Assembly (NCBI GenBank): GCA_030149205.1
Contig: JASBSB010000006.1
Location: 60,001-92,000 of the forward strand
Length of the DNA: 32,000 nucleotides
Origin: Candidatus Heimdallarchaeota archaeon
GTDB lineage: Archaea > Asgardarchaeota > Heimdallarchaeia > Heimdallarchaeales > Kariarchaeaceae
Direction: 5' to 3'
The position numbers and the translations under genes are program-made. The notes beneath the pieces were generated by a model. It searched no databases. It saw nothing but the letters and a program-made list of their open reading frames with translations, and had not been told where the DNA came from. Shown piece by piece: positions 6,270 through 31,032 of the stretch. How positions within the stretch are numbered: the stretch's first letter is position 1; every line of letters starts with the position of its first letter.

Positions 6270-9200
6270 TTACAGATATTTTTTGTGGGGTTTAGCTCGC
6301 TTGATAATTTGAAAGACTGGTAGTAAAAACAAGGCAATCAAAATGCCCTCTGTACTAAATGGTATGAATCCACCCCCAGCTGGTTTACTTGAAGTAGATA
6401 TTAAAATTGTCACTTTTGCAGTCCCAAAATTTGTGGTGGTCTCTTTCACTGAATCATACACATTTATAGTAATAGAAACTTTTCCATTTACCACATCTGA
6501 CGAGCTTATATCAAGCTTTACTGAATTGATTCCGGACACTAGAGAGTGATCATTGAAAGTGAGGACATTTCCAACAAATAAATCATAATGATCAACCTTC
6601 ACATCATCTGTTGCGTTAAACTTAACTGTTAATGATAGTTTACCTGAACTATTCATTGTGAATGCTTGATTTGCTTTTGGTTCAAGTATGTTAACTACTG
6701 GTGGGGTTTTATCTAAAGAATACGATACCTTAGGACCCACACCAACCATTACAGCTTGTTGCTGCTTTACTACTGAATATGAGCTCAATAATTGAGTTTG
6801 ATCAACTCCGGGAGGAGTCAGCATATCTACCACATTTGGATCGTAGGGACCATCATCTCCTCCTCCAAGTTTCCAAGTTGATGCTGAGGTCATTCTTTCT
6901 CTAAAAGCAGAGAAATCTTGTGACCCAATTAAAACCACGTAAGCCCAATCTTGTGTTGGTGTTCCTACGATGTTAAGAGGGGCTTTAATTGTAATAGTCT
7001 TTTCTAAGGTATCTGCAATGGCAGAAACCCCAGCAAATGTCGTTTTGTTTTGATAGAGCCCGTATTGCTTAAACCCGTCAGCTCTTACCAAAGTTTCCCA
7101 GGCAAAATCAGGACTAATAAGTACATTTGGATTTTGGTCAGGTTTTGTATTTCCAGACCCGCTGATTCTATTTTTATCAATATAGATCTGAATCAAAGGA
7201 TGAGAAAATCCTGTAGGTGAATTCCAAGGATTTGTGATCTCAGAAAACTTTAATGACGCAACGAAATTATTTTTGTCATACCCGAGTTTGAAATCTAGAA
7301 TATCAAACAATCCATGTCCTGGAGCAAAATCTGGAGCTTTGGGATATGTCCCAAATTCATCTCCTGCTGGATCAGTGGTTGAGTATACAACATTAAAATT
7401 GACACCTGAAAAAGGAACTTGGAAAACAGCTGGCCCATCTTGAGGAGCTATATCTGTTTCAAAACCAGAATAAACTGCTCTGACTGAGAAAAATTCTCCA
7501 GGAGTATAATTGAAGAACTTTAGTGGAATTGACATTTCAAGAACAGAATTATAAGAAGCAAGTCCACCACTCACTACACTTTGTAGAACCCAATCACCGT
7601 TGACCACCTTCCAATAACGAAGGCTAGAATCATTAAACTGAAAGGTAACAGCATAGTTTAATTGAAATCCTAGGGTATTAGAGAAGTTAGTTTTATCTGC
7701 ACCTATAGGGAAAATTGCCCCTGACGAATCTTGAGGATTTTTGAAATAAAGACCCATAAAATCATTTGAAGAGCTACGAGCGCTTGATGACTCGAGGTCA
7801 AATTCATAAAGTAAGTTAGATGTGTTGCTATTTATCCCCGCACGCATATAGTTTATTGCCAGAAATTCAACGGAGGTATCATTTATGAAATATGCTCCAT
7901 CCCATTCTCCAGAAGCTTTAGTTCCATCGATAGAATACCCCGTCATTTTTGTTGGAAAACTGGAACTAATTGATGGTTTCTGTTCTAAAAATAGTAATGG
8001 GTTTATTGCTAATATTTGAGCATTCGTGTAGCCTATATTTACGTAAACATTTCTCAAGAATGATTTAAAGCCCCAATCAAAAACGTAGTCATGTCCAGAG
8101 TTTTGATCTGTTCCATACCACCAGAACCAATCTGAACCTTCAGCTTTGTAAATTGATTCCCATGCAGCGGTGGTGTTATAGGTTGGATTGGCTTTCTCAA
8201 AGTTGACTAAATCAGTCCTGGTTTGAATCAACCAATCCCAAGCGTTATTCTCCTCAGCTTCACCTATCCAAGTGTTCAGGTTTCCACTAATCCAAGAGCC
8301 TGATGCAAGTTTGTTGACCACAGGAAGATTTTTTGTACCAAATGTGTTGATAAATTGGGTTGGGGTTACAGTTTTTAACCATCCCTCTGTTTGGGCTTGT
8401 TCAAGTTTCGCGTAGAGATCATTTCTAAAGATGTTTCCTGTATACTCGTTTTTGCCATCTCCGTTAATATCATAACTGTAATGTTCCCATGCATTTTCTC
8501 CATCCAATGCAACAGTAATAATATAAGGTGTTGTCTTTGCAGGAGCCTTTTGTAATTCATTATAACGAGTTTTAAGCTCATTATAGAAATCTTGAGCTGC
8601 CTTTGCTGGATCCATTCCAGAGTAGGTGAATCCAATTTTATCTGAAAGTGCTGTATCTCGATAAAGGCTTGCAATCTCATATGATTTTGTACCATTTGTT
8701 GCTTTAACTTTGTACATCTGGTATTGTTGTTCTGGGGTTAATGAACTCAGTCCTAAACTATTTTGGAGGACGGTTTGGTCAGATACAAACCATTTAATAC
8801 CAGAAGCATTCATCAAAGGAACCACGTCGTTTGAAACTGCTTCCTCACTTGGCCACATACCAGTTGGTAATGTTCCAAACTTGGTTTTATAATATTGTAC
8901 TGCCTTGACAATTTGTGCGTTTGCATCTGAAACCCAGCCTGTATTTCCTTTGGGAAGGGGAAGGTTTCCATTTCCTGGTGAATCTCTTGCAGAAGTGAGA
9001 TTGATTAATAATGGTAGTATAGGATGGTAGAAGGGAGTTGTAATAATCTCGAGATTCCCCTGATTTTTTGCCAGATTATGTTTGGGTACAACAGATTTCA
9101 AAAGGTCTAATCCCTTCGTTAAAACATAGTCAAGATTACTATGAGAAAATCGACCGGTGCTATTACTAGTTTCAATATCATTGTTCAAAGTTGCGAGAGT

Positions 9201-9794
9201 GAAATCAGCCTTAATGTAATCTGGGTTAATCCATCTTAAGAAGAACATCACCTTTAAATCAAGGAGATCCCCATTCGTGAAATGAGCAATCTTCTCAGCC
9301 ATGGTAGGATATTTGTTTGCCTTTTCCTGAAGATAAGCATATCTTCCAGTTACAAACTGGGGGTTAATGTCGAAGAAAAATTGTAAAACAACAGATTTGT
9401 TTTCGGCACTCATTGCAGTCTCTTGCATTTTTGCAACCTGAATTCTTCTATCGTAAGCAACACCATTTGCGTAATCATCCATTTGAGAGAGAAGAGACGG
9501 TGTGAGGTTAATTGTTGCGTTCACCTTGGGATGATTTATCATTAGGTCTGCCATCCAGGGATATGAATTAGTAGAATGCATGTAGACCCAAGGTTGTTCA
9601 TATATCTTCGTTGTCGGATCCTGATAGTTCGGTTGGTGCTGATGCCAGATCAATGAAAAATAGACCGGTGTAACAGCTTGTTTACTGATCAGAATCGGTT
9701 CCGAAGTAGATCCTGCAATCGATCTATTCGTACTTGATGAGAACAAAAAAATCAGAATGAGGAATATTGGAATCAAATAATTTTTTACTTTCAT
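6270..9794 (-). CDS. apu: Cell-surface GH57 amylopullulanase with DOMON-like/glucodextranase-C domains, Ig-like domain and C-terminal membrane anchor
   Basis: Signal peptide MKVKNYLIPIFLILIFLF (ATG 9794; ORF track starts at TTG 9809). GH57 motifs WHQHQP, TPFYHPILPL, GMWPSE (nucleophile), ALDGENAWEHY (acid/base) and AEGSDWFWW. C-terminal DPAGD...FSHPLIQIYID...DPNVVDML domain and GGGFIP-TM-basic tail. Confidence 0.93.
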   Translation of the reverse strand: MKVKNYLIPIFLILIFLFSSSTNRSIAGSTSEPILISKQAVTPVYFSLIWHQHQPNYQDPTTKIYEQPWVYMHSTNSYPWMADLMINHPKVNATINLTPSLLSQMDDYANGVAYDRRIQVAKMQETAMSAENKSVVLQFFFDINPQFVTGRYAYLQEKANKYPTMAEKIAHFTNGDLLDLKVMFFLRWINPDYIKADFTLATLNNDIETSNSTGRFSHSNLDYVLTKGLDLLKSVVPKHNLAKNQGNLEIITTPFYHPILPLLINLTSARDSPGNGNLPLPKGNTGWVSDANAQIVKAVQYYKTKFGTLPTGMWPSEEAVSNDVVPLMNASGIKWFVSDQTVLQNSLGLSSLTPEQQYQMYKVKATNGTKSYEIASLYRDTALSDKIGFTYSGMDPAKAAQDFYNELKTRYNELQKAPAKTTPYIITVALDGENAWEHYSYDINGDGKNEYTGNIFRNDLYAKLEQAQTEGWLKTVTPTQFINTFGTKNLPVVNKLASGSWISGNLNTWIGEAEENNAWDWLIQTRTDLVNFEKANPTYNTTAAWESIYKAEGSDWFWWYGTDQNSGHDYVFDWGFKSFLRNVYVNIGYTNAQILAINPLLFLEQKPSISSSFPTKMTGYSIDGTKASGEWDGAYFINDTSVEFLAINYMRAGINSNTSNLLYEFDLESSSARSSSNDFMGLYFKNPQDSSGAIFPIGADKTNFSNTLGFQLNYAVTFQFNDSSLRYWKVVNGDWVLQSVVSGGLASYNSVLEMSIPLKFFNYTPGEFFSVRAVYSGFETDIAPQDGPAVFQVPFSGVNFNVVYSTTDPAGDEFGTYPKAPDFAPGHGLFDILDFKLGYDKNNFVASLKFSEITNPWNSPTGFSHPLIQIYIDKNRISGSGNTKPDQNPNVLISPDFAWETLVRADGFKQYGLYQNKTTFAGVSAIADTLEKTITIKAPLNIVGTPTQDWAYVVLIGSQDFSAFRERMTSASTWKLGGGDDGPYDPNVVDMLTPPGVDQTQLLSSYSVVKQQQAVMVGVGPKVSYSLDKTPPVVNILEPKANQAFTMNSSGKLSLTVKFNATDDVKVDHYDLFVGNVLTFNDHSLVSGINSVKLDISSSDVVNGKVSITINVYDSVKETTTNFGTAKVTILISTSSKPAGGGFIPFSTEGILIALFLLPVFQIIKRAKPHKKYL

Positions 9795-9944
9795 TTGGAA
9801 TTTCTCCAAGTATTAGACCCGATACAAATTGTGTAAATTTTAATCTTTAGGAATAACAATAATATTTTTGGATATTAGCACAACTATTTGTTTTTAAGAA
9901 ATTTAACAATTTGCGAAATTTTTCCATTAATTTTAGACACTATA

Positions 9945-9957
9945 TGACAATTTTCCA
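9945..9957. promoter_or_regulatory. Candidate sugar-regulon operator (TGGAAAATTGTCA on minus strand) upstream of apu
   Basis: One mismatch to TGRAAAWTTTYCA; recurs upstream of other alpha-glucan genes. Confidence 0.55.
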
Positions 9958-14532: not shown

Positions 14533-16014
14533 TCACTTTTTCTTTGATTTTCTTCTTTTAATGTCTTGAATCACTGGGATACTAACCAACAAAATAGGAA
14601 CCACTATGAATTGAAAATCTCCCGGGTTTATTGTTGATTTAGATGTAGGCGTACCAGTACCTCCACTTACTAAAATGTCGCTCCAAAACGTGGTAACAAC
14701 ATCAATAAATTGACTTAGTGTTTCATTTCCAGCTAAGTAATTATCAAGTTCAGTTCCAAAAACGGTTTCCAACTGAGCCCATTTTGGATCCACGGGATTT
14801 TTATATGCTCGATCTATAATTCCCTTTATAGCTTTAATATAAGTCCAAGCCGGGGAATTCGTCACTGCAGGGTCTTTAAACACAGATTCACGGGCAGGAA
14901 CATGGTAATAACTTATTGCAGCTTCTGCCATGGCATGAGCAGAACTCATAAATCTGGAGAATTTCATGGCTGCTTCAGCAACCGCACCAGTTGCCCTCTT
15001 GGTTATAACGTAAGCATGTCCACCTAAAGGTGCTCCCTCGTGTCCCTGTTCATCATGTGGTAACCTCATTATCCCTAGATTGGAAGCTGATGCCCAGGTT
15101 CTTGAGCCTGGTGCGGATTTATTGAATTCAGGGGCATTCGTTAGAAAGTTCTTTAACTCCCAAGGCCCCTGTTGAATAAATCCAACTTGTCCTGTGGTAA
15201 ACATAGGATTGATTGTACTCCACCCTTGTTGATCCCAAGGAGGAGTATATGGGGCTGTAACCACATCCTTAAGGAAGGTTAAAGCAGTTCTTGATTCTGT
15301 AGAGTTAATATCTATATTAGCAAATGAGACATTGTCATTCTTAAAAAATCGAGCCCCGTGTCCGTAATATATAGGCTGGGCTCCGAAAAACATTCCTTGC
15401 AATGTAAGCCCATAAACGGGTTTACCTTCAGGATTTTTTAACTGCTTATCCCAAATTTGTTTTGTATAGTTAGTGAATTGCGACCAAGTTAACGAGGTAT
15501 TTAGGGTAAACTTCGTTGTATTAATTCCTGCGTTCTCTAATGTATGTTTGTTATAAAACAGGGCGGGGACATCCACAAGTTGAGGCCATCCCCAAATCTG
15601 TTCGGTTCCTGATTTATCAGGGTAAGACACTAACCTCAAGGCATCTGCGATGAAATCTTTCTTATCGGTTGCATTCAGGTAGGGAGTAATTGGTTGAATT
15701 AGTCCCTGTTGGGCAAATTCCACCACCCAATCTCTTGCTGCCCTAAATACTGTAGGTTCCAACTGGGCACTAAATTGTGTCAGATACGTTTCCTTTGCAC
15801 TGAAAAAGCCCTTTGCCTCTGCTTTAACATTTATTGTGGGATTTGCTGTCTCAAATTCCTTAACTAAACGAAGAACACCTGGTTCTTCACTAGAGTTTTC
15901 AGTGTACCAAAATGTAATTTTTACTGTACTCGTTTGTGCGAATGTGCTACTTGGAAGTACAGAAAACATAAACATGAAAATCACTATAATTGGGAGAATT
16001 ATTTTTTTATTCAT
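14533..16014 (-). CDS. malE: Maltodextrin ABC transporter solute-binding protein, C-terminally anchored
   Basis: Signal peptide without lipobox; ITFWYTE, IWGWPQLVDVPALFYNK, FIQQGPW and LGGHAYVI motifs; S/T linker then PGDF-TM-KRRKSKKK; SD AGGAGG. Confidence 0.87.
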   Translation of the reverse strand: MNKKIILPIIVIFMFMFSVLPSSTFAQTSTVKITFWYTENSSEEPGVLRLVKEFETANPTINVKAEAKGFFSAKETYLTQFSAQLEPTVFRAARDWVVEFAQQGLIQPITPYLNATDKKDFIADALRLVSYPDKSGTEQIWGWPQLVDVPALFYNKHTLENAGINTTKFTLNTSLTWSQFTNYTKQIWDKQLKNPEGKPVYGLTLQGMFFGAQPIYYGHGARFFKNDNVSFANIDINSTESRTALTFLKDVVTAPYTPPWDQQGWSTINPMFTTGQVGFIQQGPWELKNFLTNAPEFNKSAPGSRTWASASNLGIMRLPHDEQGHEGAPLGGHAYVITKRATGAVAEAAMKFSRFMSSAHAMAEAAISYYHVPARESVFKDPAVTNSPAWTYIKAIKGIIDRAYKNPVDPKWAQLETVFGTELDNYLAGNETLSQFIDVVTTFWSDILVSGGTGTPTSKSTINPGDFQFIVVPILLVSIPVIQDIKRRKSKKK

Positions 16015-17392
16015 TGTTTCGCCTCCTTTTTCTAAGAAGTAATGCTACCGAAAATATTGCAAACAGCCCAGTTATAAATAGAAAACTTGGGCTTGATTTA
16101 GCCACACTATTTAGTGGTGTAAATTCTGGTAGATTCGACCAAGGTGAGCTTGGTGGAACCAACAATCTGAGAGCTATGTCTAAAGAGAGTGTGGTCCTTG
16201 GTGCGTTTTGATTTCGTTGAACAAATTTTGTCATCTGATTATTAAAAACATCGAGAACAGACAACCAAGCTGGGTCATGGGGCAGATCTAAAAATACGTT
16301 CATTGAAGTGTTTGCTACTTTTCCGAAATCAGTTGTAAGATCCAAAAATGATGTATTCACTGGTAAATATGATGCTTTTACCAAATTATCTTGTGTATTT
16401 TTGTTTCTCAACATTGCACTTATGGTTTTAACCAAAGGCATATCAGAGCTTTTTGCTTCAGTTGTAAGAAAAACAGAGTATGTTTCAACTGGAGCTGGAG
16501 CAGGCATTGGATATAATCCTAGATTACTCTTACCTGAAAATACTGTTCCCTTGGAAATATCATTGTATTTCAGTGATGAAGCAATGAGCATAGCAAGGGT
16601 CCCATTTGTCTTAAACAAGGATTCAGAACCACCATTCTCCTGAAGCGCCCAATCAGGTGCTGCTTGCTTGACATTTATTGTTTCATTGATGTTAGTTAAT
16701 GCAGCTAATGATGCATTACTATTCACAGAAAGATGAGCAACATCCACTGTGTTATCTTTGAACAAAGCACCCCCTAAACCATAAAACAGGGATAACATTG
16801 GATCTTGAACACTTTCAAAACCGACACCAAACACTTTTTTCAGAGGGTTGGATTGATCGTTTGATTGTACTGCTGCATCACTAAACTTTTTAATTGTATC
16901 TACACTGACCTTGTTGAGGTTTACTAAATCTTTATTTAGGTAAAGAAACTGAGTTGTCGAAGCAAAACCATATCCATAGAGCTTTACCGTGTTGTTTATG
17001 ATACTAGCAGTAGTTTTAGTGTTAGGAGATACTTCAAAAAAACTTGATCCACGATAAATTGATGGAAACACTCCCGCTTCACTCGAATTTGACACAACTT
17101 TAACAAGATTTCTTGTTGCAAGTTGAGGGAGTAAACTATCTGAAGTTATAAGAATCTTAGGGAGTGTCCCTAAAATTTTCTTTCTTACTAGATCATTTAT
17201 TAGCGAACTCTGTGAAACTGTTGTGATCTTGTAAGATGACCCAAGCGATGACGTCACAAGTGTCCCTAATGATTGGGGTACTGATACTATTATCTCAGTC
17301 TGAGATTGTGCTTGAGTGGGAATAACTGATAAGTTCATCCCAGCAGCTAATAATACTACCAGTACAACTGAAAAAAATAATTTTTGTTTCAT
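16007..17392 (-). CDS. Divergent MalE-fold solute-binding protein, C-terminally anchored
   Basis: Colinear similarity to the adjacent malE (LYGY..TTQFLYLNKDL; YGLGGALFKDN..SVNSNASLAAL; W..V..VF..QM..FV). ATG 17392 preceded by AAGGTGA (ORF track starts at GTG 17401). SPSF-TM-RKRRR tail. Confidence 0.7.
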   Translation of the reverse strand: MKQKLFFSVVLVVLLAAGMNLSVIPTQAQSQTEIIVSVPQSLGTLVTSSLGSSYKITTVSQSSLINDLVRKKILGTLPKILITSDSLLPQLATRNLVKVVSNSSEAGVFPSIYRGSSFFEVSPNTKTTASIINNTVKLYGYGFASTTQFLYLNKDLVNLNKVSVDTIKKFSDAAVQSNDQSNPLKKVFGVGFESVQDPMLSLFYGLGGALFKDNTVDVAHLSVNSNASLAALTNINETINVKQAAPDWALQENGGSESLFKTNGTLAMLIASSLKYNDISKGTVFSGKSNLGLYPMPAPAPVETYSVFLTTEAKSSDMPLVKTISAMLRNKNTQDNLVKASYLPVNTSFLDLTTDFGKVANTSMNVFLDLPHDPAWLSVLDVFNNQMTKFVQRNQNAPRTTLSLDIALRLLVPPSSPWSNLPEFTPLNSVAKSSPSFLFITGLFAIFSVALLLRKRRRNNE

Positions 17393-17511
17393 TATACTCA
17401 CCTTCGTGTTAAAAAAACATCTAGACTCACTTAAAAAAGTAATCGTTCTTATAACTGTGACCTAGGTGTCTTTTTGGATAAATTTGTAAGTTCAAATTTA
17501 TTTGATAATTT

Positions 17512-17524
17512 TGGAAAATTTACA
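17512..17524. promoter_or_regulatory. Candidate sugar-regulon operator (TGGAAAATTTACA) upstream of the SBP/mal operon
   Basis: One mismatch to TGRAAAWTTTYCA; overlaps the glgP stop; about 57 nt upstream of TATA-like GTTATAAG (17455-17448). Confidence 0.5.
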
Positions 17525-19537: not shown

Positions 19538-19550
19538 TGAACAATTTCCA
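19538..19550. promoter_or_regulatory. Candidate sugar-regulon operator (TGGAAATTGTTCA on minus strand) upstream of glgP
   Basis: One mismatch to consensus; lies 4 nt upstream of TATA-like TTTATAAT (19533-19526). Confidence 0.55.
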
Positions 19551-26839: not shown

Positions 26840-26852
26840 TGAAAAATTGTCA
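26840..26852. promoter_or_regulatory. Candidate sugar-regulon operator (TGAAAAATTGTCA) upstream of gap
   Basis: One mismatch to consensus; TATA-like TTTTATAT at 26773-26766. Confidence 0.55.
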
Positions 26853-26879: not shown

Positions 26880-29543
26880 TTACACAAATTTTTTCTTTTT
26901 GAGGGTGATTACAAGACCAATTACAACAAAAGCACCTAATACAGGTACAATGTCCACAGGAATAAATCCACCACCAGAACTTGATGAAGTTGCACTCGTG
27001 GGTGTAGATGTGGGTGTCGCTTTGGCCGTGATAACAACCTTGAATGTCTGTGAGACAAAGTTTCCACTCGCATCAAAGAGGTTTGCTTTCAAATCATGCG
27101 TACCAACACCTAAGGAAATATTAAAGTTGACAAACACATGATAACCTACAACTTTCTGAGTACCGAGGAGAAGATTACCGTCGAACAACTCAACTTTGGC
27201 AAGTCCAGAAAGAGAACCTTGTGCATCATCATGAAGCAACGCATCAACTCTGAAATCTACCGTTGATGTACTTGTTGCAACCTCAAAAGAAGCCCCATTA
27301 GTCACAAGTTTACCTGCGTTTGTGACATTGAACGACAAGAATTTTGGTGCGGTAGTATCCTTGATGAACTTTTCGCCTGATCCAACAGGTAATACAGATG
27401 CTACTTTAGAGTTAGCAAGGTCATACCTTGATAAGGTATCATTCTGTAGAGTAGCTGGTGAGCCAACTGGAACTAACATGTCAACCACATTGGGGTCAAT
27501 TGGTCCGTCAACTCCACCACCAAGCTGCCAATCAGCACCCCATTTTGCACCTGCAGACCTAAATTTGTTGAAATCATCACTTCCAGAGAAGAGATAATAT
27601 TTCCAGGTGTTATTTGGTTGTCCACCAAGCATTTTGGTTGGAATTACAATTGAGGCCACATTTGTTGTGGTATTGCCAGATGCTTGAATTCCTGATCCCG
27701 CAAAAGGAGCTGACAGATCTGAGGATTTGAAATATTGGTTCACAAAACCATCTGATTTTAATGCATAATTCCATTGTGTTGAGGTCTGAACAGCCTCATT
27801 CCACAGAGTAGATGTAGCACCACCTGGTCCATTGTCAACATAAACGGAAAAGATAACAACTGAGAATCCTAATGAAGAACTAAAACCATTGGTCAGGTTA
27901 GCAAACGTAACCCTGAATTCGGTGTTATATTGATTAGAAAGAACTTCAAAGTTCAATATATCAATTACACCAGGTGCAAATGGTGGATTGTTTTTCGGTA
28001 TCCTCAGTGATAGATCACCCTTGGGATCAGAAATGTTATATTGAAGATTTCTGGGGGGTTCGATTCCAACTAACAGGGTGAAATTACCCTGAGTAATCAT
28101 TGAGGTTTTTTGACCTGTTTTATTGAAACCATAAGTTGTGACGTAATATGTGATATTTCCGGTGTAGTAAGGACCAATTGAAACTTCATAGTTGTTGTTT
28201 AGATTCTTATAACTGAGCCATGACATATTCTTTGACATAAAAGTACCAGTGTTGTTTCCTCTCCAGTAAATAGTGGTTCTTACAGGAACATTTGCTGCAG
28301 GATCTGCATTAATGCTAGTACCATCAGCAAATTTAAGGTTATTCTGTGCCTGAATGGTGACGGTTTTGTTTGGTGCAACGAAACCACCGGTGGGGGAGAT
28401 CCCACCTAAATAGGTCACATTGAAAGGTGGTAGGGGAGCCACATAAAAGCTCCCTGAAACGGTACCTACACTAATGTCAGTTGCATTGTTCAATCCTTTT
28501 GCCCACCAGAACACATGGTCACCATCTTGGAACTGAGTCGCATCGATTTTTACAACCTGTTTATCTGAACCTAAACCAACTCTTGAGCCAAACTCCTTAT
28601 ACGCATACGTTTTATATGAGGTGTTTACCCCAGTTCTTTCAACTTTGTAATCGAATTGAACTAATGCGCTACTATTAGCATTGTCATTAACGGTTGGTTG
28701 ACTGCTGTTCCCAGGAGAATGAAACCATGTGTTGAAACTCATGATTAGTGGATTTCCTGCCGTTAGATTACCACCTGCTAAGTTATCTGTCTCATGAGAT
28801 AGATACCCTATCTGTGGTGTTGGAGCTAATGCTGGTGAACTAATTGATGTAACTGAGATGTTAAGATATGTCTTAAGTGTCATAAATTCTGATGTTGTTG
28901 CGGCTGGAACACCTGCTTGACTTGGGACTGAATCATACACATTTGATCCGTCTCCACCTGAAGTGAGGACCAATAACCCTATTGTCGCGCTTGATGGTAC
29001 AGTTGCGTATAATAATGACCAATCAAACCTGTATGTTTTGATTTGGGATGTGCCATCATATTTCCATCCATAACCTGCGAGAGGTGTGGTACTGGTTGCG
29101 ATAGTTGCCCCAGATGAATCATAGAGGTCACCATAGCCTTGTTCCCATCCAGCAGCCCAATATTCTGCTCCAAAGTTACTAGGTAGCTTCACTGGTCTTA
29201 TCCAGTGTGCTCCAGTACTTAAATCAGAATATCCTATACCTGTACCAGGGTTTGTATCAATAAATACTAAGTCACCACCAGTAAATACATCTCCACTTAC
29301 CCTAATGACAAGTGATGATGTATTAACGGTTACATTTACAAATTTAATTTCTTGCTGTGGAAATGCTGCGTCATTTGGTGCATCAGGAATGATATATGAT
29401 GCGCTTGCTGCAGCTGCTTTTGGACTAACTGTACTGTTTGATGCTGGTGTTGCCAACGGCAAACCTGCTAACGCAGTGGGAGTTGATCCAAAAACTAATA
29501 CCAGAAACAAGAAAACTGATAAGCTAACCAATTTTATCTTCAT
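26880..29543 (-). CDS. Cell-surface multidomain glucan-binding protein (DOMON-like/glucodextranase-C and Ig-like modules), no catalytic domain recognised
   Basis: Signal peptide. The aa ~500-887 region is homologous to the apu C-terminus (DPKGD..IDILNF..GFS..IFSVYVD; LGGGVDGPIDPNVVDML; GGGFIP-TM-KKKK). No GH57, GH13 or GH15 motifs seen. Confidence 0.72.
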   Translation of the reverse strand: MKIKLVSLSVFLFLVLVFGSTPTALAGLPLATPASNSTVSPKAAAASASYIIPDAPNDAAFPQQEIKFVNVTVNTSSLVIRVSGDVFTGGDLVFIDTNPGTGIGYSDLSTGAHWIRPVKLPSNFGAEYWAAGWEQGYGDLYDSSGATIATSTTPLAGYGWKYDGTSQIKTYRFDWSLLYATVPSSATIGLLVLTSGGDGSNVYDSVPSQAGVPAATTSEFMTLKTYLNISVTSISSPALAPTPQIGYLSHETDNLAGGNLTAGNPLIMSFNTWFHSPGNSSQPTVNDNANSSALVQFDYKVERTGVNTSYKTYAYKEFGSRVGLGSDKQVVKIDATQFQDGDHVFWWAKGLNNATDISVGTVSGSFYVAPLPPFNVTYLGGISPTGGFVAPNKTVTIQAQNNLKFADGTSINADPAANVPVRTTIYWRGNNTGTFMSKNMSWLSYKNLNNNYEVSIGPYYTGNITYYVTTYGFNKTGQKTSMITQGNFTLLVGIEPPRNLQYNISDPKGDLSLRIPKNNPPFAPGVIDILNFEVLSNQYNTEFRVTFANLTNGFSSSLGFSVVIFSVYVDNGPGGATSTLWNEAVQTSTQWNYALKSDGFVNQYFKSSDLSAPFAGSGIQASGNTTTNVASIVIPTKMLGGQPNNTWKYYLFSGSDDFNKFRSAGAKWGADWQLGGGVDGPIDPNVVDMLVPVGSPATLQNDTLSRYDLANSKVASVLPVGSGEKFIKDTTAPKFLSFNVTNAGKLVTNGASFEVATSTSTVDFRVDALLHDDAQGSLSGLAKVELFDGNLLLGTQKVVGYHVFVNFNISLGVGTHDLKANLFDASGNFVSQTFKVVITAKATPTSTPTSATSSSSGGGFIPVDIVPVLGAFVVIGLVITLKKKKFV

Positions 29544-29705
29544 TATAATTTCCTCTAATTATTTTGGTTATTCTTGGGGTAGGAAAGGGTTATATATAAG
29601 TTAGCTCATTTCTATAATGATAAATACAACCTTTTGGATTTTTTTTGAGATCATTGTAATTTTTGAGATAAAATTTAATCATTTTCTAAATTTTGAAATT
29701 TTACC

Positions 29706-29718
29706 TGAAAAATATTCA
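29706..29718. promoter_or_regulatory. Candidate sugar-regulon operator (TGAAAAATATTCA) upstream of the 887-aa surface protein
   Basis: One mismatch to consensus; overlaps the stop codon of the kinase gene. Confidence 0.5.
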
Positions 29719-31032
29719 TTTTTTTGAGAAATTTTCCAATAATTTGGAATGATAAAGTATAGATATTATTAAAGTATCAATAAGAAAATATCTCTGTTGA
29801 TTAGCTGTCATACGTATTTTTTCCAACTTTACTCCTCGATTTAGAAACAGCTCAAAAGTCTCTTCAAGACTTATACCAGATAAATCAAGCGAATTTTCCC
29901 AGTGTTTGATCGCATAATGAAGTTCTTTTAATGAACGGAGAATAAGAAATCTGTAGAATAAATGCTTCTGAGAAATACTTAGTTCAAATAGATCACGTAG
30001 TTTTACATGGATTTCTTTTGCCTTTGATAATAAAAGGTTTTCAAAATGCAAGAAATAGTTAATCTGATTTATGATTCCTGAATAATGACTAGCAAAGTCA
30101 TATAGGGGGGACCCAATTAATACATCCTCTATATCCATAATCTCTAATTTATCCATAGTTAGAATGAGTTGCCGCCACCAGAGATCCCCATGGATTGGTT
30201 GCTCAAGATCTGTCATGAGATTTGAAAAGTCAACTACCTCTTCGAGATGAGAAAAATTTAATTCTAGTCCAACTTTTTTAATTTGCTCATTGAATTTCGC
30301 CACCCATCTGGAAAGGTATTCTTTAACATTGAACAGTGCGGTCTTTGCCTCATCAGTAAGTTTTGAAAGATGTAGCCCCTCAATTATGATTGAACCTAAT
30401 GCTATATGAAATCTTGATATCAAATTGATAGATCTAGCTGTAAATTCTACAAAATCATCCTTAAATTTTGGATTTTGTGAGCTTATGTAGTCCCTTAGCA
30501 ATGAACCTGTGTAAGTATCAGCATTCTCCTGTTCTGAGATTTCTTCAAAAAGAGCAAAGATGGTATGGGTTCTTCCCTCAACTTGAATTTGCAAAGAGGT
30601 ATAGAGTTTTGGAAACATACCAAATTCGCAAAGTTTTGAAGAAAAAGTGACTTCATTGGATCCAATGAACATTCGAGTGTAAATCTTCATATGATACCTG
30701 GTTCCATCAACCCCAATTAACAAAAAATGTTGATTTGTAGCATCGATATTCAACCTCTCTATACTCTTACACATTATCCCAACTGATTCTAATGCTGTAT
30801 TTACTAATCCAAGAACATCTGTCACAAAACTAAGTGACTCACCTTTTCTTTCTAACCAAATAAAAGCTGAAGTAAAATCATCGTGGACCTTATACAGCCC
30901 ACCCACTTTTTTATTGGAATTTGTACTAACTGGTATGAAGTCAGTTATTTTTATACGGTGTTTGTCCAACCCATAATTTCTTCTGAGAATTTCCTGAGAA
31001 AGGTTAGAAATATCTAGCTTGTTTAGACTCAC
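29716..31032 (-). CDS. Maltokinase-like (Mak/Pep2) kinase, aminoglycoside-phosphotransferase fold
   Basis: YHMKIY (ATP lysine), FHIALG, QPIHGDLWWRQL (compare Mak IHGDLHLGQVL), IMDIE (DFE-like) and SPLYDFA; sugar-gene context; GTG start. Confidence 0.62.
   Translation of the reverse strand: MSLNKLDISNLSQEILRRNYGLDKHRIKITDFIPVSTNSNKKVGGLYKVHDDFTSAFIWLERKGESLSFVTDVLGLVNTALESVGIMCKSIERLNIDATNQHFLLIGVDGTRYHMKIYTRMFIGSNEVTFSSKLCEFGMFPKLYTSLQIQVEGRTHTIFALFEEISEQENADTYTGSLLRDYISSQNPKFKDDFVEFTARSINLISRFHIALGSIIIEGLHLSKLTDEAKTALFNVKEYLSRWVAKFNEQIKKVGLELNFSHLEEVVDFSNLMTDLEQPIHGDLWWRQLILTMDKLEIMDIEDVLIGSPLYDFASHYSGIINQINYFLHFENLLLSKAKEIHVKLRDLFELSISQKHLFYRFLILRSLKELHYAIKHWENSLDLSGISLEETFELFLNRGVKLEKIRMTANQQRYFLIDTLIISILYHSKLLENFSKK

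Follow-up and report, generated by a model that had tools for sequence, protein, structure and literature searches.

Non-catalytic surface glycan-binding proteins are central to the competition of gut and marine bacteria for polysaccharides. SusE and SusF, from the starch utilisation loci of Bacteroidota, hold glycan at the bacterial surface, as do further proteins of this type and Sas6 from the amylosome of Ruminococcus bromii. SusE and SusF do so as membrane-anchored strings of non-catalytic beta-sandwiches beside a surface amylase and an importer, and Sas6 as a non-catalytic starch-binding protein with two carbohydrate-binding modules (CBM26 and CBM74; PDB 7UWU). No archaeal counterpart is known to us, and literature searches found no characterised archaeal equivalent of these proteins. 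The candidate described here comes from the Heimdall group of Asgard archaea, the nearest relatives of eukaryotes known so far. It is an 887-residue protein encoded by gene P0001 in a stretch of 32,000 nucleotides (the window; contig JASBSB010000006.1, positions 60,001 to 92,000) of a Candidatus Heimdallarchaeota archaeon, and the gene lies 17 kb from an amylopullulanase gene (apu) of glycoside hydrolase family 57 (GH57).

The role proposed for the P0001 protein is that of SusE and SusF. However, it carries a sortase-type tail and is not a lipoprotein, the importer concerned is of the MalEFGK type (an ATP-binding cassette transporter with a solute-binding protein, SBP) and not SusC/D, and the host is archaeal. 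The first-pass annotation of the window had called the protein 'SusE/F-like'. No sequence relationship was found, Pfam inspected to E 1 returning PF09985 alone, and the likeness is at most one of function. The comparison with Sas6 is similar: the CBM74 core is CBM9-like, as is the predicted first domain of the archaeal protein, but dockerin and sequence matches to CBM26 or CBM74 are absent, and 7uwu_A, listed at Z 12.1 by the structure comparison program VIA-align, superposes with a root mean square deviation (rmsd) of 15.6 over several domains and gives no domain-level match. Hypothetically, the protein is thus an analogue, and not a homologue, of SusE/F or Sas6.

The homologous systems lie closer to hand. 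Apu of the same locus, like Thermococcales-type Apu with a Glucodextran_C domain, shares with the P0001 protein a homologous C-terminal cassette, secretion and gene neighbourhood. In contrast to Apu, the P0001 protein lacks the GH57 domain, and the 570-residue catalytic and 200-residue middle parts of the enzyme are replaced by three unrelated beta-sandwiches. The Glucodextran_C domain of glucodextranase provides the second comparison: domain D4 of the archaeal protein is a member by sequence and D1 has the same predicted fold, although the Pfam model is blind to D1 and the domain is here not attached to any enzyme. On balance, with the evidence tilting slightly in its favour, the P0001 protein is read as a non-catalytic, glycosylated and sortase-anchored surface protein that would bind alpha-glucans (starch or maltodextrin).

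Domain architecture and the cassette shared with Apu

The reading frame recognised by the first-pass annotation at 26880-29543 is uninterrupted over its 887 codons, and the motifs singled out there (LVFIDTNPG, HWIRPV, YWAAGW, VFWWAKG, TIYWRG and YYVT) are all located in the translation. The features of the gene, and the homologous part of apu, are as follows.

26880..29543, minus strand: whole gene of the 887-aa predicted surface protein (P0001); intact reading frame, ten orthologs of 864-894 aa align full-length
29466..29543, minus strand: putative signal peptide, aa 1-26, with a basic start, a hydrophobic core and T-A-L-A before the likely cleavage site; read from the translation, equivalent N-termini in orthologs
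28827..29405, minus strand: D1, aa ~47-239, predicted divergent Glucodextran_C/CBM9-like (DOMON-like) beta-sandwich; structure comparison, ESM features, Atlas shape, hhalign
28428..28814, minus strand: D2, aa ~244-372, predicted immunoglobulin (Ig)-like beta-sandwich; AlphaFold2 model and structure comparison
28050..28427, minus strand: D3, aa ~373-498, predicted Ig-like beta-sandwich related to D2, with a conserved GGIxPTGGFVAP start; structure comparison
27378..28049, minus strand: D4, aa 499-722, canonical Glucodextran_C domain (PF09985), common to Apu; Pfam, hhalign, PDB profile match
27024..27377, minus strand: D5, aa ~723-840, Ig-like, homologous to the Big_7-type domain of Apu; hhalign
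26976..27023, minus strand: Ser/Thr/Pro-rich linker, aa ~841-856, probable O-glycosylated stalk; translation, length differs between orthologs
26883..26975, minus strand: putative C-terminal sorting signal, aa 857-887, GGGFIP, hydrophobic helix and KKKKFV; Gly-for-Pro variant of Heimdall-CTERM/PGF-CTERM
6270..7394, minus strand: homologous cassette in Apu, aa 806-1179, Glucodextran_C, Ig, linker and GGGFIP tail; Pfam, BLASTP, hhalign

The homology of the C-terminal ~390 residues to the apu segment 6270 to ~7390, first proposed from the letters of the window, is confirmed, nucleotide range included. Residues 499-885 are 30% identical to Apu residues 806-1173 over 403 columns (BLASTP, E 1e-30), and profile alignment (hhalign) pairs D4 with the Glucodextran_C domain of Apu (806-1030) at E 7e-47 and D5 with its Ig-like Big_7 domain (1030-1140) at a probability of 96% (E 5.8e-9). 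PF09985 Glucodextran_C, the only Pfam family found in the protein, covers residues 504-717 with 108.1 bits against a cut-off of 22 (E 6e-31), and the D4 profile finds glucodextranase (1ug9/1ulv, residues 780-998) at E 7.7e-10. Apu itself (1179 aa, window 6270-9809) contains GH57, PF09985 and Big_7 by Pfam, its Ig domain matching PF17957. The Ser/Thr linker and GGGFIP tail noticed earlier are found at residues 843-856 and 857-887, and Apu ends in a tail of the same form. Prediction of a complex between the Apu cassette (806-1140) and that of the P0001 protein (499-845) scored 0.00 and gives no verdict on pairing.

Membership of GH57 implies a (beta/alpha)7 catalytic domain, PF03065 and a Glu/Asp catalytic pair. 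Pfam detected neither PF03065 nor any other glycosidase family in the P0001 protein, structure comparison of models detected no catalytic fold in residues 28-498, and hhalign found no similarity of D1-D3 either to the GH57 catalytic domain of Apu (probability at most 0.3%) or to its middle region. The search of residues 28-498 for a family, a fold or likeness to the Apu GH57 domain thus agrees with the first impression that no catalytic domain is visible. Two more specific ideas were rejected or found no support: the probable mature N-termini (GLPL... or EKLS..., by eye) lack the N-terminal histidine of a lytic polysaccharide monooxygenase (LPMO), and D1 and D4 lack the invariant His or Met ligand pair of a heme-binding DOMON domain.

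The remainder of the protein, some 470 residues, has no Pfam, NCBIfam or PDB sequence match even at permissive thresholds, and the PDB yielded nothing usable when searched by sequence with either the complete protein or a D1 profile. The AlphaFold2 model of residues 28-498 is all-beta, with three sandwich domains (predicted local distance difference test, pLDDT, 77; predicted template modelling score, pTM, 0.68), in keeping with the beta-sandwich-like modules suspected beforehand; D2 folded by itself reaches pLDDT 84. Given the model of all three domains, Foldseek found nothing but generic tandem-Ig proteins, at TM ~0.15. Exhaustive structure comparison with VIA-align was more informative for D1, which matches residues 775-1020 of Arthrobacter glucodextranase (1ulv_A; Z 12.1, rmsd 3.5, 161 aligned), the putative carbohydrate-binding protein 4jpq of Bacteroides (Z 9.8) and CBM9 1i82 (Z 9.5, rmsd 4.1, 156 aligned; no match to Pfam CBM9, PF06452). 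Membership of CBM9 would also require a two-Trp clamp for the reducing-end sugar. In language-model space (ESM features) the neighbours of D1 include a PF09985 cluster at 0.91, and by shape the ESM Atlas places D1 next to clusters of GH57+PF09985 and of PF09985 alone. Direct alignment of D1 with D4 is weak (hhalign, E 1.4e-3, probability 18%, 105 colinear columns) and the PF09985 hidden Markov model finds no match in D1 up to E 10. Nevertheless, the region of 1ULV matched by D1 is the region that the D4 profile finds, and D1 therefore appears to be a second, cryptic and very divergent Glucodextran_C/CBM9-like domain, as judged from the models. Residues D54, D58, N74, D96, G100/102/104, R116, W133 and D198 do not vary among orthologs. 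The first strand of D1 reads TIDGxxxDW in the bacterial protein P0014 as well as in distant orthologs. The lineage of the window has in its stead an Ala/Ser stretch of low complexity (aa 28-46, window ~29406-29462) that is disordered in the model (pLDDT < 50).

D2 and D3 resemble each other (hhalign, E 8.9e-5, probability 60%). The top structural match of D2 is 4kmq_A 33-144 (Z 10.1, rmsd 2.5), followed by generic Ig, macroglobulin and S-layer domains at Z 7-9. D3 matches Ig-like domains at Z 9.4-11.4, including N-terminal domains of alpha-glucan enzymes (lmo2446 4kmq, GlgE 3zss, TVAI 1izj and Amy703 8jnx) together with unrelated proteins; 4kmq (lmo2446) scores Z 10-11 across D2 and D3. Since unrelated Ig, FN3 and macroglobulin domains score nearly as high, both are read as generic Ig-like sandwiches and may be no more than spacers in the modelled protein. 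Similarly, the starch-binding modules CBM34-type 1izj (Z 9.4 for D3 and 7.9 for D2) and CBM21 7qf7 (8.6 and 7.3) match no better than unrelated Ig domains, and the Pfam scan of the whole protein found none of the starch-binding families CBM20, 21, 25, 26, 34, 41, 45, 48, 53, 58, 68, 69, 74, 82 and 83. The first-pass annotation suggested that the N-terminal modules may be undescribed CBMs. They match no sequence family, but the predicted fold is a known one in D1 (Glucodextran_C/CBM9-like) and generic Ig-like in D2 and D3.

Other properties are those of a surface protein. There are 23 N-x-S/T sequons where ~12 are expected from composition (17-23 across orthologs), no cysteine (seven of the eight aligned orthologs have none, and P0011 has two) and, in the orthologs, an acidic isoelectric point. 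Together with the signal peptide, the tail and the presence of a sortase gene in the genome, these hallmarks support the view of a secreted, anchored, modular beta-sandwich protein.

Gene neighbourhood and distribution of the family

The gene is less than 20 kb from a GH57 apu gene in six of seven informative loci. The arrangements in related genomes are listed below, TARGET standing for the P0001 ortholog.

L003 (congener, genome G001): phosphorylase, apu, GH57 amyA, kinase-like gene, TARGET, malF, malG, malK
L005: amyA, kinase-like gene, TARGET, malF
G018 (another family of the order; N-terminal identity 26-27%): apu, amyA, kinase-like gene, TARGET, CBM48-esterase, glyceraldehyde-3-phosphate dehydrogenase (GAPDH), MMPL, MFS
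L021 (42% identity): TARGET divergent from an operon of a P0006-like gene, SBP, malFGK and apu, followed by GH77, GAPDH and two GH13 genes
L022 (28% identity): TARGET adjoins apu
G003: contig end ~100 nt past the kinase-like gene, exactly at the expected TARGET site

Ortholog identities span 23-52%, and the linkage to apu or to genes of maltodextrin transport is kept even at 23-30%. That the linkage persists although the orthologs have diverged so deeply and the loci have been rearranged several times speaks most strongly for a function of the protein in the use of alpha-glucans. Co-occurrence with apu, proposed as a check at the outset, is also seen at the level of genomes: P0001 orthologs are present in 4 of 61 related genomes and apu in 6 of 61, and the two sets overlap. 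The idea that the protein substitutes for a binding protein missing from the operon of the congener was rejected, an SBP gene and its partner gene lying divergently upstream in G001, G003 and L021.

The family is small. A HMMER search with residues 28-500 against 1.84 billion representatives gave seven hits: five true orthologs (872-894 aa), a bacterial protein of 383 aa that has only D1 in common, and a spurious repeat match (P0013, a PKD-repeat protein). With word-based and genome searches added, the family comprises ~10 proteins of 864-894 aa, all with the five-domain plan and the tail; it is uncharacterised, undescribed, archaeal and restricted to Asgard archaea. A search for related loci with an alignment of close sequences returned the congener contig only. 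Absence of the gene from draft genomes is an unreliable sign, as the congener assemblies break inside or just before the ortholog (G001:C17 end / G001:C16 start; G003:C46 end), possibly owing to the Thr/Ser-rich linker or to the cassette shared with apu.

A 13-bp near-palindrome recurs in the window.

29706..29718, plus strand: copy of the near-palindrome TGRAAAWTTTYCA upstream of P0001

Further copies lie at 9945-9957, 17512-17524, 19538-19550 and 26840-26852, each of the five in a spacer upstream of an alpha-glucan gene or gap (apu, the SBP operon, glgP and gap, besides P0001). At orthologous promoters of the relatives its presence is patchy: a copy, TGAAAACTTTTCA, immediately precedes the kinase-like gene of L005 and that of L018, and no copy was found in L015 or L016.

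Proposed role and competing explanations

In the proposed mechanism the protein would be exported by way of its Sec signal peptide, heavily N-glycosylated at its 23 sequons and probably O-glycosylated along the Ser/Thr linker. Its GGF-type Heimdall-CTERM tail would be cut by the heimdallarchaeosortase, leaving the protein attached to the membrane. The membrane-proximal cassette (D4, D5, linker and anchor) would hold the P0001 protein and Apu at equal height above the membrane, and the place taken in Apu by the enzyme domain would be occupied by the second Glucodextran_C/CBM9-like sandwich, D1, on the Ig-like spacers D2 and D3. Polymeric alpha-glucan bound at the cell surface could thus be kept beside Apu and the binding-protein-dependent MalFGK importer. 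Published data on related domains are consistent with such a role: CBM74, the proven starch-binding module of Sas6, is built around a CBM9-like fold (bioRxiv 10.1101/2022.11.20.514607), and deletion of Glucodextran_C altered the alpha-glucan kinetics of a GH65 enzyme (PMC10074034).

Several points weigh against this interpretation. Sugar binding has never been demonstrated for Glucodextran_C, and the domain is not a recognised CBM (PMC10074034). In the window, the gene stands apart from the mal operon. The alignments behind the structure predictions hold 8 sequences only, and the Z values of D2 and D3 against Ig-like domains, which are ubiquitous, lie near background. The near-palindrome, with five matches (one mismatch allowed) against 1.5 expected and five reached in 2 of 100 shuffles, is weak evidence and a hint only, because the pattern was drawn up post hoc from those very sites.

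The alternative that survives best is a scaffold or envelope protein and not a lectin, in which the Glucodextran_C and Ig cassette would be an envelope stalk or attachment module and the N-terminal sandwiches, themselves not binding glucan, would hold or arrange other surface proteins (for instance Apu or the two anchored binding proteins) or form part of an S-layer-like coat. Glucodextran_C is labelled 'SLH-like' in Pfam, its sugar binding is unproven (PMC10074034), and the overall plan, a signal peptide, ~800 residues of tandem sandwiches, a Thr/Ser linker and a PGF-type tail, is like that of archaeal S-layer glycoproteins. D2 moreover matches S-layer proteins of Haloferax (7ptp, Z 8.5) and Nitrosopumilus (8c8k, Z 8.2), but generic Ig domains score just as well. 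One would also expect a main envelope protein to be common across the clade, and the rarity of this family, patchy in the related genomes and yielding seven hits among the 1.84 billion representatives, therefore counts against an envelope role, as does the fact that its distribution and position track apu and the mal genes. Such a role is accordingly considered unlikely.

It is quite improbable that the protein has another ligand (a different glycan, a partner cell surface, or a mineral or particle) and was recruited to the locus by domain shuffling, only by virtue of the cassette shared with apu. The ligands of the DOMON-like superfamily are varied, the gene in the window has a putative promoter of its own away from the mal operon, and CBM9 binds the reducing ends of cellulose and xylan, not starch (bioRxiv 10.1101/2022.11.20.514607). 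However, linkage to GH57, GH13, GH77 and mal genes is maintained at 23-30% identity and through several rearrangements, and chance shuffling is a poor explanation for a linkage that survives both.

There is likewise little to recommend a cryptic enzyme. Beta-sandwich glycosidases, lyases and LPMOs exist, the N-terminal region belongs to no described family, the gene sits in an enzyme-rich operon, and the invariant acidic and polar cluster of D1 (D54, D58, D96, R116 and D198, with W133) might form an undescribed catalytic site in an N-terminal sandwich, acting on alpha-glucan or on another polymer; but no catalytic family or fold is matched, the nearest folds are non-catalytic modules, the probable mature N-termini, by eye, lack the histidine that an LPMO needs, and the invariant Asp residues fall, in alignment, at positions shared with D4 and the Apu domain, both non-catalytic, in line with a structural or Ca2+ role.

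A wider proposal is tentative, with somewhat more to be said against it than for it. In it the P0001 protein, sortase-anchored and free of any enzyme domain, would give the archaea, and the Asgard group, their first counterpart of the bacterial surface glycan-binding proteins, D1 (perhaps with D2 and D3) would found new alpha-glucan-binding families, and the locus would encode a Sus- or amylosome-like apparatus for starch capture composed of an anchored Apu, two anchored binding proteins and MalFGK, with the long-uncharacterised Glucodextran_C gaining a sugar-binding function. Should the protein bind starch-like glucans, Heimdall-group Asgard archaea would be seen to forage polymeric alpha-glucans by means of a multi-protein surface apparatus. 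A function would also be provided for the Glucodextran_C/DOMON-like domain of many GH57, GH15, GH65 and GH49 enzymes, and one or more CBM families might be added.

Sorting signals, partner genes and further observations

The tail of the P0001 protein has the three parts (a short motif, a hydrophobic helix and a basic end, at the extreme C-terminus and after a Thr/Ser-rich linker) seen in Heimdall-CTERM and PGF-CTERM proteins, which are processed by archaeosortases, as are the substrates of Haloferax ArtA. It differs in reading GGF[IL]P instead of PGF(E), and against the Heimdall-CTERM model NF045529 it scores 15.1 bits where the cut-off is 24; in three orthologs the GGF position is taken by PGF. 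What was first described as a 'GGGFIP anchor' is indeed present and is better regarded as a putative variant Heimdall-CTERM sorting signal. A heimdallarchaeosortase is encoded in the genome (NF045528, 227.8 bits, cut-off 130), and processing of the tail by it is plausible on the form of the tail. Many proteins of the genome carry Heimdall-CTERM tails (PGF(E), helix and basic end), the canonical form reading PGFE, and the other candidates with tails read mostly have PGF(E). GGF[IL]P tails are found in this genome only in Apu, the P0001 protein and two large S8 subtilases, and may be the sign of a separate group among the sortase substrates, one that consists of exo-enzymes. Even if glucan is not bound, the P0001 protein would remain a useful marker of this GGF-variant class.

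G000:C2:~524675-525403 (L012:1147-1875), plus strand: sole archaeosortase-family gene of the genome; NF045528, not detected by Pfam PF09721
G000:C1:116361-119396, plus strand: S8 subtilase, 1011 aa, GGF[IL]P tail
G000:C7:283324-287820, minus strand: S8 subtilase, 1498 aa, GGF[IL]P tail

Upstream of P0001 lie a putative promoter region and the neighbouring kinase-like gene.

29544..29715, minus strand: upstream region of P0001, a 172-nt spacer with TATA-like TTATATATA at 29591-29599 and GAGG at 29552-29555
29716..31032, minus strand: P0005, upstream neighbour encoding a 438-aa cytoplasmic kinase-like protein (HGDLWWRQ); conserved partner in five of the loci examined

As read from the letters, TTATATATA is placed ~50 nt, and GAGG 9 nt, 5' of the ATG, and the region may be the gene's own promoter. 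P0005 is 31-32% identical to the product of the gene directly upstream of the ortholog in L003 and L005, and clear homologues are likewise placed in G018 and G003; the gene is absent beside the orthologs in L021 and L022. The homologues (L003:8507-9808, L005:960-2396, L015:14601-15794 and L018:12268-13722) are 400-480 aa long and ~30% identical, with the invariant motifs HGDxWWRQ and D-x-E-D. A single Pfam hint, APH at E 0.055, was obtained; no PDB sequence match was found, and a word-based search with P0005 returned only itself.

Just upstream of the maltodextrin SBP gene, P0006 (window 16007-17401, minus strand) encodes a 464-aa secreted protein with no family match, whose tail is Heimdall-CTERM-like (18.1 bits). 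In G001, G003 and L021 the neighbour of the SBP gene is of similar size (452, 576 and 475 aa, respectively). Judging from its sequence, P0006 may be a second anchored binding protein. In G018, a fusion of a CBM48-like glycogen-binding domain and an esterase (426 aa, L015:10447-11727) is encoded directly downstream of the P0001 ortholog.

Among the sequencing runs listed as matching the window there is no RNA run. DNA words of the window are present in a sediment metagenome, its probable source, and 31% of the sampled words occur in a hydrothermal-vent metagenome. The genome also encodes a full-length actin homologue (G000:C2:232008-233114, minus strand; PF00022, 445 bits), which together with the heimdallarchaeosortase makes the Heimdall group probable and is consistent with an Asgard archaeon.

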